NCBI GenBank assembly: GCA_051362555.1
Contig: CM120644.1
Location: 7,076,954-7,140,953, forward strand
Reading direction: 5' to 3'
DNA from: Lingula anatina
Taxonomy: Eukaryota; Animalia; Brachiopoda
Length of the DNA: 64,000 nucleotides
Made by a program: the position numbers and the translations under genes. Each line of letters begins with the position of its first letter. The stretch's first letter is position 1. The notes below the pieces were generated by a model. The model had not been told where the DNA came from and searched no databases. It saw only the letters and a list, made by a program, of their open reading frames with translations. Positions 31,084-39,012 of the stretch are shown here, piece by piece.

Positions 31084-33196
31084 ATGGCAGCAGTGAGGCG
31101 CTTTCTCTTTTCATCTACAACAGTGACTTTTGTCTTGGCATCCTTGATTGGAGCTCTGTGTGCCTTCATATTCTTGAAATATGACAGCCTAACCCAAGCC
31201 TCAGCTTCTATAAAGAAACAGAAGCTGCCACACACAACACTGTATAAACATTGGTTGAAGAACAGAGGACTTTTTCAGGTTCATGATTTCAAGGTGGAGG
31301 AAAAGGATCTTGCTAAGGTGTGTTTTGTAAGCAATTCTTTACACTAACCTTAAATTAGTCTACACATGTATGCACAGGTACAATGTGTGCCACACTGTGG
31401 TAACTTGCCTGCATTCTGTATTATTGGAAAACGAGATTTGCTTCAGGTGACAAAAATTTTGATGAATTTTTAGTGTAGAATAAATTGAAGAGCAGTTGGA
31501 ATTCTGCCTTTTTTTCTTTTTTTTTCATCTCCTAAGGGAGGATACAGTGTTTAAGTTGATGACTCTTTAAAGGCAATATGGATCATTATTATTATAGTTA
31601 CTGTATGGGTTTCAACATATTCCTCCCGAAGCTGAAGGAAATCTTCATATCTAGATCAGCCCCACCCCCTGCCCTTGAAAACACATTCTGGTTTGTTCTT
31701 CTTGTACTAGCTACTTAAAACCAAAAATTCTGTACTAGTATCTTGCTTTTGCAGACATTAAAGCTGGAAAAAGAAGACAAATACTTGTACGATACCACTC
31801 CCATCCTCTGCTGGATATTATGCACAGAAGAATGTATCTTGGACAAAAAAGTCAAAGCTCTCTGGGAAACCTGGGGAAAACGCTGCAACAAACTGCTCGT
31901 CTTCAAACACAAAAATACTCCTCTAGAGCACAAAGATGTGCCCGTCATCGATCTCAAGCACAAAGTTGACACCTGGAACGCCATGGAAGAGACACTTCAA
32001 CACCTGCACGTGTTCTACAGAGACAAATATGACTGGTTTTACAGGGCCGAGGAAGACACTTTCACTGTTGTGGAGAATCTGCGTTATTTTGTATCTGTGT
32101 ACAATGCCACAAGTCCCCATTATTTCGGCCACGTGTATAAAGAATGGCGGAGTTTATATAACTTGGGTCAGGCTGGCTTTGTGATCAGTAGAGGTGCGTT
32201 AGATATCCTGTATCAGGGCATAGAGAAAGACCAGTTGTGCCCCTACTCAGGCACGGCTGACATCATGCTAGCAAGGTAATTCTTTAAAATATTCATTATT
32301 TGGTAAATGACTGTAAATTGCTTTTTGCATTGAGTATTCTGTGCTGTGTCCATCTTCAGTGTTTTGATTAGCTGCTTTTTGGATAGAAATTTTAATGACA
32401 TGAGCTGCTCTAGTCACCTATGATAATAGTTATATAATTTTTTTCTTCAGAAAACGGGTCATTGATAGGAGGCTAAAATAATTTGTGACATTCAATTAAA
32501 AATATTTACATACATTTTGGAAATGCAATAACTGCATGGCTCTGTTGAACATTACCAAAAGAAAAAAAATTACCTTATCCAAAAGGGTTTTCTAGTTTTG
32601 CTGCATGGGCATACAAGTACATGTACCAGGTTATAAGTGAACAAAAATGTGAGCAATATAACTGAATTGATTGCATATGTTTTTCAGCTTGATACTGGTG
32701 CATTATACATTGGGAAGTTATCAAAATAAAAGTTATCATCAGTTTTATCAGTATGATACAATGTTTTAAATAATATTTTAAAAAATGAAATTATCTCAAA
32801 CCAAAAGCAAACAGTTTTTATCAAATCTATGCATTTATTATACAGGATGATCATATCTCTTAACAAAAGCTTACATTTTGGACATCTTTCACAGCTACTT
32901 GTGATACGTGTAATGGGGAACTTCTTTTTGTACCTCAGTCAATGGATTGGAAGCATCTTGGGGATTTACAGTCATTTACAGTCATTTACCAAATACGTCT
33001 TAATATATACAAATATATTAAATAAGAACTTTCCTGTTCAAGGTGTCTGAAGCAATACCATGTGATCCCAGGGGATACAGTTGACACCCTGGGGCGGGCA
33101 AGATTCCTAGTCTACACCCCTGAAGAACACCTCATTCCGGGTCATATTAACTGGAACAACGCCTACTGGTACAAAAGTCAACATATTAGTAAAAAT
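31084..33196 (+). CDS. C1GALT1-like (GT31) cassette A with degenerate catalytic motifs; predicted to splice to the shared terminal exon 38584-39012
   Basis: Exons 31084-31317, 31755-32275, 33043-33196 give 303 codons ending in phase 0 at a GTAAGT donor. Type [63 protein letters not shown]. No private CCS/SFHY exon was found before cassette B. Confidence 0.85.
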
Positions 33197-34083
33197 GTAA
33201 GTACTAGTATAATGTAAATACTCTTGTTTTACATGATACACTCAATGTTTTGGAAATCAGCATGCTAGTAATCATAAAACCTTTGAAATTATTGGTTTTT
33301 GCATTTACTGGTAGATTTAAATAGTTTAGCAGTATTGGAATATATCTAATAGAATAAAAAGCAGTGTGTGCCTATCACATCTGTATTAATTAGCCTAATA
33401 ATTTTTTGCTAACTGAATTGCAAGGGAATATGAACCATGTTAAACTTCATAACATTTCTTTTTACAATTATTGTATAAAATTTGAAAAGTCAGTTTTTTT
33501 TTATTATCAAATTTCATCAACTTTTTATGGATTGTGCTTGCATTTCTCTGTGCAAATGGTTATTATTAGTATTATTTTTGTTGTTATTATTATTATTATG
33601 TTGCTGTTGTTGTTGTTGTTAATTGTTGATATCAGGAAGGTGTGTTTGGTTTAATGTGAAATACAGACAGTTAATCTACCATTATATAATGTACATACCT
33701 GTATATATTCCATTACCCTGAGATTCTGATATTATTGTTCAATCTTAAGTAGTAAAAAAGATTTAATGCCTAGTACATACTGGTTTGAAACTACCTTGTA
33801 ATAATGGTCTTCACTCTTCGGCTAGTTAGTCAACCTACTTATTCTGTGGACTTCTACTGGAATTAAGATGACTTTTTTGAGGTAACAGAATTAAAGTTTT
33901 ACCACTCAGCATGATAGTTTGTCTATGTTCCCTTACCAACAATAAAGGCTTTCAGTTGCGGGAGTACTCTGGCAACATTTTACGTTCTGTAAGGGTTGTA
34001 ACCTAGACTGGCACCCATATTCCCATTTATACACTGTACATGTACAAAGATTTCCTTCCCTTTTGATCAACAATTTGAAACAA

Positions 34084-37400: not shown

Positions 37401-39012
37401 TATTTAGGGTATTTTATTGTCTGCCCCATGGCAAGTCTAGTCATTTCTTCCTCTTGTCTACGTGTCCAACAGGGCTTCAAGCCTCTGGCATTCTTAAGGG
37501 GTCTTAGTGCAAGTAGGTGATTATACAGAGACAGTGAACTTTGAATTTTATTGCCAGCTTCCTCAATGACCATACAGAGGAAATGCTATGAATATTTCAT
37601 TTAAAAGTTAGATGTTCATTGCATAGTAAAATAAGGTACTATAGGACTGAAACAATTTTCTAAGCACGCACACATCCTGAAAGTATTTACCGATTGTTGG
37701 GGTGGATGTTGGTGGAAAAAAATGAAAAATGTTCAGTTTTTGTTGCTGCAAATGGCTGTCTGTTACAGGTAGATTGCTAAAATTGTATATGTGTTACATG
37801 TTTCATTTGGGTTATATAGAACTGAACTAATATTACATTATCATTTAGTTTACTTGTACATTCCCTTCCTTGTCAAATAAGAGGAAATAAATCCAGTCCC
37901 ATTGCATATTATAACAACTCCAGCCTTACACTGTCACTGGGGGGAATGGGGGGGGGGGGCTTTAGTTCAAACTTACCAGTAAACATTTATTGTTAAATTT
38001 CATTGACTGAATGCAGCCTGGTTCTCTGCCTCTTACAAAGGAGAGGGAAGAGGTTTTCTCCTGTCCTGCTTATAATTAGCTTCAGGTCTTTGGTGTATTT
38101 ATAGATAGATAGCATGTGGGCTTATTAGTGGTGAATATTTTTAGCTCATTGCATGTAAAACATCCATTAATAGAGACTTAAGAGAGATTATGTATGAAAT
38201 GTCTGTTATTGGTGAATTCAGTCAGATTGTGGGTGTAAGGTCCATGAATAATGACTGAGCCCTTAAATGACTGAATATACACTTCATATTTGTTTTGTAC
38301 ACAGGCATTTAATGTATTGAGTATGAATTAGTAATATTATATGGACATTTTATATATTACCATATTATATGCACATTATTCTAAACATTTTGAAAATTTA
38401 AAAGTCAGCTGGAAAATTGTTTTAAATATATATGGTGTTTTTCTTTTCTGTTTTAGATATTGCTCAGTTATGCTGCCAACAAGTCACATCCCCTCAGAAG
38501 AAAAATATCATTTTATTACATTTGTTCTCAAATTTTTAGTATCAGTCTGTAACATATTAATTTTTCTGGTTCTTTTCCCACAGGGTCCAGAGTGTTGCAG
38601 TGACTACGCCATCTCATTTCACTATATCTCTCCCAATATGATGTATGTGATGGAATACTTGATCTACCATTTAAGACCACATGGTGTCAGCACCAAGCTG
38701 GTCCTCCCACAGGAAGGACACACAGACAGACTCACACAGCAGGGGGTCCAAGACAAGCCATCAGTGGTTGATGGAAAATCTGAACAGGATTTAGACAAAG
38801 GCGCTTTAGACAAAAAGACAGACTCTCAAAGTGCTAGTGATAAAGCAAGAGAGGATGTAGAAGATAAACAGGATAACAGGTTGAAGAAAGAAGAAAATCA
38901 ACAGGGTGAAATAAAGTTTAAAAATGCAGGCGACTCACATACATTGGGCAAAAATTCTCCTGAGAAACTAGTGAAAATTGTGTCAAAATCTGTAAATCAA
39001 CATGGCAGTTAG
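34468..39012 (+). CDS. C1GALT1: Core 1 beta-1,3-galactosyltransferase (T-synthase), ~442 aa
   Basis: Exons 34468-34696, 36052-36722, 38584-39012 in phase. Motifs [67 protein letters not shown]. The three-coding-exon layout matches the canonical C1GALT1 structure. Confidence 0.93.

Follow-up and report, generated by a model that had tools for sequence, protein, structure and literature searches.

One last exon shared by an intact-looking T-synthase and a degenerate, probably Cosmc-related paralogue at a single locus of the brachiopod Lingula anatina

At the UGT1A and clustered protocadherin loci the 5' cassettes lie in tandem, every one has a start of its own, and splicing to a constant 3' part completes the protein; the variable part is an array of many single-exon cassettes. 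Here we describe a locus of comparable layout in the brachiopod Lingula anatina, located in a stretch of 64,000 nucleotides (64 kb; positions 7,076,954 to 7,140,953, forward strand, of contig CM120644.1, assembly GCA_051362555.1), hereafter the window, in which two cassettes of the GT31 glycosyltransferase family are spliced onto one last exon: cassette B, with the residues of an intact T-synthase (C1GALT1), and cassette A, with a degenerate active site. Unlike the UGT1A and protocadherin loci, it comprises two multi-exon cassettes only, which diverged anciently (33% identity), and A is likely a non-enzyme partner of B rather than a specificity variant.

The closest described pair of proteins is vertebrate Cosmc (C1GALT1C1) and its client T-synthase, where, as in Lingula, an inactive-looking GT31 paralogue with a degenerate DxD motif accompanies an intact T-synthase. 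Like A, Cosmc is anchored in the membrane as a type II protein whose transmembrane helix contains a Cys, a residue that human Cosmc needs for retention in the endoplasmic reticulum (PMC9775496; this paper, like PMC2500138, PMC7185993, PMC8022947, PMC9065035, PMC11005171 and PMC13389171 below, is cited for excerpts). The vertebrate protein is, however, far more derived than A: it comes from a gene of its own, which has one coding exon (PMC8022947), and it has its own tail, in which the C-terminal metal-binding His is lost (FNG/FSG rows in the supplement of PMC8022947). A departs from this vertebrate form on both counts, as it is made from four coding exons, three private and the last one shared with its putative client, and it keeps the FHY motif because that exon is taken from the client. 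In the same family, the CHSY-CHPF chondroitin synthase heterodimers likewise combine an active enzyme with a paralogue devoid of GT-A motifs (PMC13389171), but these are two-domain proteins encoded by separate genes with no shared exon; their structures (PDB 9o4g and 9q8z) were among our fold matches. The Cosmc/T-synthase pair, the cassette loci, GT31 enzyme/pseudo-enzyme pairs (PMC13389171, PMC7185993) and the two RefSeq isoforms of the Lingula locus are all known already. As to the distribution of Cosmc, papers from 2008 to 2024 describe it as restricted to vertebrates or unidentified in invertebrates, in the excerpts cited: the former stands in a section heading of PMC2500138, the latter in PMC11005171, and amphioxus and Hydra members are reported by PMC8022947.

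Four raw-read RNA runs from three studies (of nine runs found by species label) were mapped on positions 29900-38350 of the window; the last exon lies outside this stretch, and its junctions were read from clipped read ends, not as two-sided joints. In run X1, the deepest of the four (436 reads, versus 53-143 in the others), 8 reads with loose ends behind position 33197, at the end of A, and 22 reads with loose ends behind position 36723, at the end of B, continue as positions 38585-38614, a stretch of 30 letters found at one place only in the window. One locus splices different 5' cassettes onto a single constant 3' exon, as in the variable-cassette/constant-exon architecture that an earlier sequence-only reading of the window had proposed, and the 33196->38584 junction by which that reading was to be checked is present in these 8 reads. 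Among the loose-end rows listed, the last-exon junctions of both cassettes exceed the listing threshold in one of the four runs (X1). Every internal intron is present as a GT..AG joint, at 31317->31755 (19 reads in X1, 4 in X7) and 32275->33043 (13 in X1) for A, and at 34696->36052 (21 in X1) for B. Read-through past A to the TAA at 33217 or the AATAAA at 33941, which the sequence-only reading had named as fatal to it, is not seen in X1, a poly(A) run, where the depth is 0 across 33284-34411, against 22 in the A core and 29-37 in the B core. Exons of both cassettes have depth in all four runs, i.e. A is not silent, as it might have been, and A and B are co-expressed. As for the start of B, no joint into its first exon is listed in the four runs, its depth begins in the bin 34412-34693 with none in 34130-34411, and the CpG observed-to-expected ratio is 1.13 at 34300-34700, versus 0.28-0.37 in the flanks, which together suggests a second promoter just upstream.

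The exon models built from the window, all on the forward strand, agree with these joints. The first coding exon of A (31037..31317) comprises the end of the 5' untranslated region, the ATG at 31084, a transmembrane helix with one Cys (C26) and a stem with a Y..W motif, which according to the alignment is common to protostome A-type proteins (defined below). The second (31755..32275) encodes a degenerate GT31 core with EED in place of DDD, no Lys for binding uridine diphosphate (UDP), an NAT sequon, YNLGQAG and TAD, and the last private one (33043..33196) ends at a phase-0 donor, GTAAGT at 33197. The coding parts 31084-31317, 31755-32275 and 33043-33196 amount to 303 codons. Cassette B has a first coding exon with ATG, transmembrane helix and stem (34468..34696), placed by the onset of RNA depth and the CpG content, and a second one (36052..36722) with an intact T-synthase core (DDD, YMSGGAG, PED and the Trp300 equivalent) that also ends in phase 0 at a GT donor (36723), 300 codons in total. 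Both lengths and ends are as the sequence-only reading had given them, and so are the motifs RAEEDT, YNLGQAG and TAD of A and KVDDDT, YMSGGAG and PED of B. The shared last exon (38584..39012), preceded by an AG acceptor, adds 142 codons and a stop, and encodes CCSD, the metal-binding His and Tyr (FHY), the dimer helix and an acidic/basic tail of low model confidence. In a search of all six frames of the window by tblastn and by a hidden Markov model of 137 homologous last-exon segments, this exon was found in one copy (38584-38688, 74 bits; next match below 0 bits) and no second or private last exon was detected; a hidden last exon between A and B was considered and rejected on the same result. 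With the last exon attached, A equals XP_013399321.1 (isoform X1, 445 amino acids) and B equals XP_013399330.1 (isoform X2, 442 amino acids) letter for letter, with tails identical in 142 of 142 positions, so the two-isoform architecture is already in RefSeq; both isoforms are named T-synthase there, without mention of the degenerate site or the Cosmc-type affinity of isoform X1.

A and B both belong to the C1GALT group of GT31, with a Fringe-like GT-A domain: Pfam PF02434 (Fringe) scores above its cut-off for both (E-value 2.9e-05 for the A core), and the structure of Drosophila C1GalT1 (DmC1GalT1, PDB 7q4i) is their best match in the PDB by sequence (E-values 8e-25 for the A core and 1e-83 for the B core) as well as by fold. 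When the active-site residues of DmC1GalT1 (Drosophila numbering, PMC9065035) are carried onto the cassettes, B is found to keep the DxD, G-loop, xED and C-His motifs together with E150, G151, R152, L155, K158, Y213, Y218, S220, W300, Y304, H324 and Y325. Judged by its residues, B is a T-synthase with every checked catalytic position intact, although such motifs are no proof of galactose transfer, because one oyster homologue in which they are intact was inactive (PMC11005171). In A, by contrast, the intact DxD and most UDP-binding residues of a T-synthase are missing: DDD is changed to EED, E150 to K, G151 to H, L155 to T, K158 to A, S220 to L, E254 to A and Y304 to K. In a gapless pairwise alignment W300 is also replaced, by Ala292 (one multiple alignment shifts a nearby Trp into the column), and substitution of Trp300 by Ala inactivates the fly enzyme (PMC9065035). 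The equivalents of Asp183, Tyr218 and the catalytic base Asp255 are retained by A itself, and those of His324 and Tyr325 by way of the shared exon. The earlier claim that the active site of A is lost thus stands as to EED for DDD but has to be softened in that A, with its third Asp, catalytic Asp, Tyr218 equivalent and metal-binding His, is less crippled than 'DxD lost' implies. The structural model of A has a mean predicted local distance difference test score (pLDDT) of 65.9, falling below 50 from residue 330 in a disordered tail. From these replacements A is probably inactive, and it may act as a pseudo-enzyme or chaperone.

The degeneracy of A is not peculiar to Lingula. A HMMER search produced a list of 150 relatives. 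Of 176 domain matches, from 166 proteins, that were scored against the A and B cores, 22 score higher to A. These 22, together with a Saccoglossus protein added by hand (score ratio 0.88) and one protein from a word search started with Limulus, form what we call the A-type set, whose named members come from Limulus, Tachypleus, Parasteatoda, Cordylochernes, Strigamia, Ephemera, Owenia, Saccoglossus, Glandiceps and Branchiostoma; many others are unnamed, and most of those that have a name carry the label T-synthase-like. Six core residues (Lys158, Asp181, Asp183, Ser220, Glu254 and Asp255) are all intact in none of the 24 A-type rows, compared with 110 of the 136 T-synthase rows. A sequon at the position of Asn195 of A is found in 17 of 24 A-type and 19 of 136 other rows, and a Cys in the transmembrane helix in 7 of the 14 A-type rows that have the helix.

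Phylogenetic trees were calculated for the cassette part only, with 30 members of near-duplicate clusters dropped, no outgroup and no vertebrate Cosmc row. A FastTree analysis of 173 rows places A in a set of 22 rows at 98, which amphioxus and hemichordate rows join at 91. In an IQ-TREE analysis of 49 hand-picked rows (22 A-type, 27 others) under the LG model, in which the bootstrap had not fully settled, A falls into a 19-row protostome set (97/95), the deuterostomes form their own set (97/89) and all A-type rows lie on one side of a branch (95/77); under a mixture model with 30 rows the corresponding values are 98/96 for a 12-row protostome set and 80/89 for all A-type rows. The clade thus comprises chelicerates, a myriapod, a mayfly and an annelid, with hemichordates and amphioxus joining at moderate support. 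A grouping of A with B is rejected by the approximately unbiased test (p-AU 0.00055), and with it a Lingula-specific duplication of B as the origin of A; on the trees, A and B are shown to have split long before Lingula. The sequence-only reading was right that A is a degenerate paralogue, on account of its residue losses, but A is no degenerate copy made in Lingula: lying within an old clade of degenerate C1GALT paralogues, it is not a decaying local duplicate, and the loss of A in other animals that was to count against that reading did not appear, A-type proteins being intact in many of them.

Is this clade Cosmc? Petit et al. (2020) list the Branchiostoma belcheri transcript XM_019780528 as C1GALT1C1 (PMC8022947, supplement 1, row 66), and its sequence is identical to a protein of our search (P0185) whose cassette belongs to the A-type set; it is this published C1GALT1C1 that A joins at 95/77 and 80/89, in the trees without a vertebrate row. 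A also meets the definition of C1GALT1C1 by a degenerate nucleotide-sugar motif and DxD (PMC8022947). At six columns typical of the A-type rows A matches in all six, B in none and the amphioxus protein in three, and at least four are matched in one of the 136 T-synthase rows; the human Cosmc row in the supplement of PMC8022947 matches at five of the six by eye, the other vertebrate rows varying at single columns, so that diagnostic columns are common to A and vertebrate Cosmc. Taken together, these comparisons make A likely, with rather good confidence, to be orthologous to vertebrate Cosmc. Among the C1GALT1C1-labelled rows 1-2 and 4-33 of 65 in PMC8022947, no member of the protostome A-type clade is present, and the sole protostome row is an oyster protein with an intact DDD. 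The word search started from the Limulus A-type protein returned two proteins from 70 candidates, neither of them vertebrate, metagenome contigs scanned with a pattern for Cosmc outside mammals gave 0 matches, and no Cosmc chain was found in the PDB as searched. A protostome Cosmc clade, or a last exon shared by Cosmc and T-synthase, was not found among the top open-licence full-text matches; subscription papers and supplementary figures may bear on this.

C1GalT1 works as an obligate dimer; helix 9 and the C-terminal loop belong to its interface (PMC9065035) and make up a large part of it. As this region is encoded by the shared last exon, A would have a dimer surface identical to that of its client. 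The predicted A:B complex scores 0.91 (median of three runs), versus 0.00 for the best of three controls; the runs agree in at least 94% of contacts and the partner pLDDT is at least 87. Among microbial pairs, the mark set for this score is reached by 51 of 78 solved and 2 of 108 mismatched ones; among eukaryote pairs, 39 of 65 novel solved and 2 of 126 unrelated ones reach it. In the predicted complex about 60% of the interface comes from the shared exon (21 of 35 residues in B, 23 of 36 in A). It also includes Glu185-Asn186 of A, invariant in 23 A-type rows; by a count along the supplement row, Glu185 corresponds to Glu152 of human Cosmc, a known site of loss-of-function, and T-synthases keep a Glu there too. 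For the human proteins, a cross-linked C1GALT1C1-C1GALT1 pair with an interface predicted template modelling score (ipTM) of 0.83 has been reported (PMC13734120), and Cosmc cut at residue 256 still acts as a chaperone (PMC5493369), so its tail is in principle exchangeable. B has no N-glycan sequon, in which it resembles the Cosmc-dependent T-synthases of mammals, where this state was proposed to create the dependence (PMC2500138). The same holds for the amphioxus T-synthase next to an A-type cassette (P0023, the Lingula protein being P0018), unlike the invertebrate T-synthases reported to work without Cosmc, which do carry sequons.

We therefore propose, as a model, that the private cassettes would decide between catalysis (B) and its absence (A), that B would act as the T-synthase and A as a likely inactive member of the Cosmc lineage from the same locus, and that A would dimerize with B by means of the helix that the shared exon gives to both, and would help it to fold or to stay stable. 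Judged by the predicted complex, binding of A to B is probable; for a chaperone or stabilizing effect on B the chances seem only just above even, and the reading as a whole, in which A is a Cosmc-type partner that binds B via the helix they have in common and assists B in folding or in staying stable, is only slightly better placed than that.

Several points weigh against this reading. To begin with the active site, the residues retained by A are compatible with an active glycosyltransferase of changed donor or acceptor specificity, to which the shared exon would supply the metal-binding His, as the constant exons of UGT1A supply a part of the active site. The EED of A could still bind metal, its fold is T-synthase-like, and among the A-type rows the Asp255 column is D in 20 of 25 and Tyr218 is kept in 21 of 25. 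However, the DxD columns vary freely in these rows (D/E/S/T, D/E/L/S and D/E/N/K/T), Lys158 occurs in none of them, no alternative set of catalytic-site residues is conserved, and the residues that never vary among A-type rows sit at structural or interface positions, all of which makes an altered enzyme unlikely. A further, weak point against the favoured reading comes from the variants called in the RNA, counted in 40 of 118 variant rows listed: among these rows A has 11 coding variants (6 synonymous; of the 5 non-synonymous ones, 4 fall in the transmembrane/stem exon) and B has 17, all synonymous, which suggests weaker constraint on A than on B. The two indel rows both lie outside coding sequence.

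An inactive A might also bind B in order to damp or tune core-1 synthesis, by a dominant-negative effect or through localization, and not act as a chaperone. The identical dimer helix and the predicted dimer would suit this role, as would the similar expression of A and B in run X1 (depth 22 versus 29-37), and the invertebrate T-synthases assayed so far, according to the excerpts of PMC11005171, were active without added Cosmc. A weakness of the favoured reading itself is that the complex score may reflect likeness to the solved homodimer 7q4i more than binding, since a C1GalT1 homodimer solved already could be remembered by the predictor, for which close relatives of a true partner either were left out of the calibration or pass. 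Against a damping role, the sole characterized member of the lineage to which A likely belongs, vertebrate Cosmc, is an activator, and B is free of sequons, the very feature proposed to create dependence on Cosmc; a damping role is therefore about as improbable as a changed specificity.

Alternatively, A could belong to a protostome clade of pseudo-enzymes with another role, independent of vertebrate Cosmc, the link to amphioxus being an artefact of long-branch attraction. The protostome and deuterostome sets are joined only at supports of 95/77 and 80/89, the amphioxus link sits on a long branch (1.55-2.2), and a tree constrained to unite the degenerate amphioxus protein with amphioxus T-synthase is not rejected (p-AU 0.197); as the trees also have no vertebrate Cosmc row, mutual attraction of degenerate lineages may be at work. 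The signature of six columns was drawn from the very A-type rows to which it is applied, and the amphioxus protein matches just three of the six. In the ESM Atlas, T-synthase clusters come out ahead of Cosmc clusters for A (template modelling score 0.92 versus 0.83-0.85) and first for the Saccoglossus protein too, with Cosmc second by structure; the Atlas does not separate the two affinities. Against an independent clade speak the arrangement of the protostome and deuterostome subsets, each a set of its own within one side of the tree, as expected of one orthologous group, the neighbourhood of degenerate and intact genes in Lingula, amphioxus and Glandiceps (in a fused model) and the prevalence of the Asn195 sequon in A-type rows, and we regard it as marginally less probable than the two preceding alternatives. 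Finally, it is highly improbable that the joining of A to the last exon reflects a minor read-through chimera or an annotation artefact, A being instead an independent gene, or a copy of B in decay, that ends at the TAA at 33217: strong AATAAA signals are found at 33941 and 34082-34106, the A junction passes the listing threshold in one run out of four and run X4 has a depth of 0.83 at 33284-33565, just after A, but in X4 other introns have similar depth, and read-through to that TAA as the main product of A is rejected by the junction reads and the zero depth in run X1, besides which the window holds no private last exon, the A+B clade is rejected and RefSeq models the same junction.

Exon sharing of this type may not be confined to Lingula. 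In the older RefSeq annotation of B. belcheri the intact T-synthase (XP_019636086) and the degenerate protein (XP_019636087/8, i.e. the published C1GALT1C1, XM_019780528) are isoforms of one gene, with tails identical in 260 of 260 residues joined at GPxCCSD as in Lingula, and cassettes with only 82 identical residues over 264 and 302. Unlike in Lingula, newer models (RefSeq XP_078655588, GenBank KAI8516170) give the same amphioxus cassette a private tail of 54 residues, of which 29 of the first 36 are identical to the T-synthase tail, the two being reciprocally nearest among 113 tails. The sharing in amphioxus may accordingly reflect alternative splicing, a gap in the old assembly, its recent resolution by exon duplication, or homogenization. 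In the hemichordate Glandiceps talaboti one model (P0021, XP_077978998.1, 719 amino acids) fuses the degenerate paralogue, which has a tail of its own, and the intact T-synthase that follows it; the gene order is as in Lingula, with the degenerate member directly upstream. A second lophotrochozoan candidate is an A-type model of Owenia fusiformis (P0113, CAH1789543.1), marked as partial, which stops exactly at the last-exon junction. In seven unnamed A-type open reading frames (ORFs; P0054, P0099, P0111, P0116, P0133, P0136 and P0155) the similarity ends at the same junction and the frame continues with Val, as in read-through of a phase-0 GT intron, which suggests that many lineages have kept this intron position.

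In arthropods and hemichordates the A-type proteins carry tails of their own, in which Tyr325 is lost. When the last-exon segments (41 residues, 113 rows) are compared, the arthropod A-type tails are mostly nearest each other, as are the hemichordate ones, and the amphioxus tail is nearest to amphioxus T-synthase; segments of this length are too short to separate ancestral from secondary sharing, and we consider ancestral sharing and the loss of a private exon in Lingula about equally probable. A bolder scenario, which we offer as tentative and rather doubtful, is that the last common bilaterian made both Cosmc and T-synthase from one locus, Cosmc having arisen as a duplicate of the 5' exons only, spliced to the last exon of its client. 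Lingula would have kept this state and amphioxus would keep it now or have done so until recently, other lineages would have duplicated the last exon, and the single-exon Cosmc of vertebrates would be a retrocopy of the spliced isoform.

Upstream of its coding part, transcript A has a non-coding first exon of at least 70 bases (30414..30483, forward strand), joined at 30483->31037 (GT..AG; 5 reads in run X1 and 8 in X7, longest short side 70 letters). A second form of this joint (30478-31036), with five other letters between its sides, is seen in 6 reads of X1 and 2 of X4 and is probably an allele of the exon end. The leader contains two short upstream ORFs of 10 and 4 codons (30429-30461 and 31055-31069, forward strand), which could lower translation of A, and in run X7 there is a 4-base insertion at the end of the second. 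The first coding exon of a METTL5 homologue (29858-29983, reverse strand; PDB 6h2u, E-value 4e-06), with opposite-strand transcription in the RNA, lies head-to-head with the first exon of A at a distance of about 450 bases, hence the two likely share a bidirectional promoter. Two short intronic stretches (32294-32327 and 37088-37122) with loose ends on both sides in several runs are matches to other transcripts, not exons of the locus. Elsewhere in the window there are a protein kinase exon (484-849, forward strand; PF00069), tandem intronless ORFs of about 490 codons on the reverse strand (41096-42589, 47618-48568 and 53579-55036) with a weak, sub-cut-off match to the C-terminal part of NXPE4 (E-value 0.004), the middle copy being broken in pieces, and a GNAT acetyltransferase exon (57152-57655, reverse strand; PF18014). 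Fragments at 58549-58974 (reverse strand) and 62586-63053 (forward strand) resemble a Tc1/mariner transposase and a long interspersed nuclear element (LINE) reverse transcriptase, respectively.

This locus suggests that protostomes have a broad clade of Cosmc-type proteins which are listed under T-synthase names, and it presents a likely chaperone whose C-terminal exon is also that of its client. If the two proteins did originate from one bilaterian locus, Cosmc-type assistance would be widespread among invertebrates and mislabelled as T-synthase in databases, and splicing to the last exon of the client would have guaranteed Cosmc a matching dimer helix. In human disease, expression of the Tn antigen rests on loss of Cosmc function; because A has departed far less from the enzyme than vertebrate Cosmc has, the A:B pair may serve as a tractable model for how Cosmc engages T-synthase and how a private chaperone evolves from its client.

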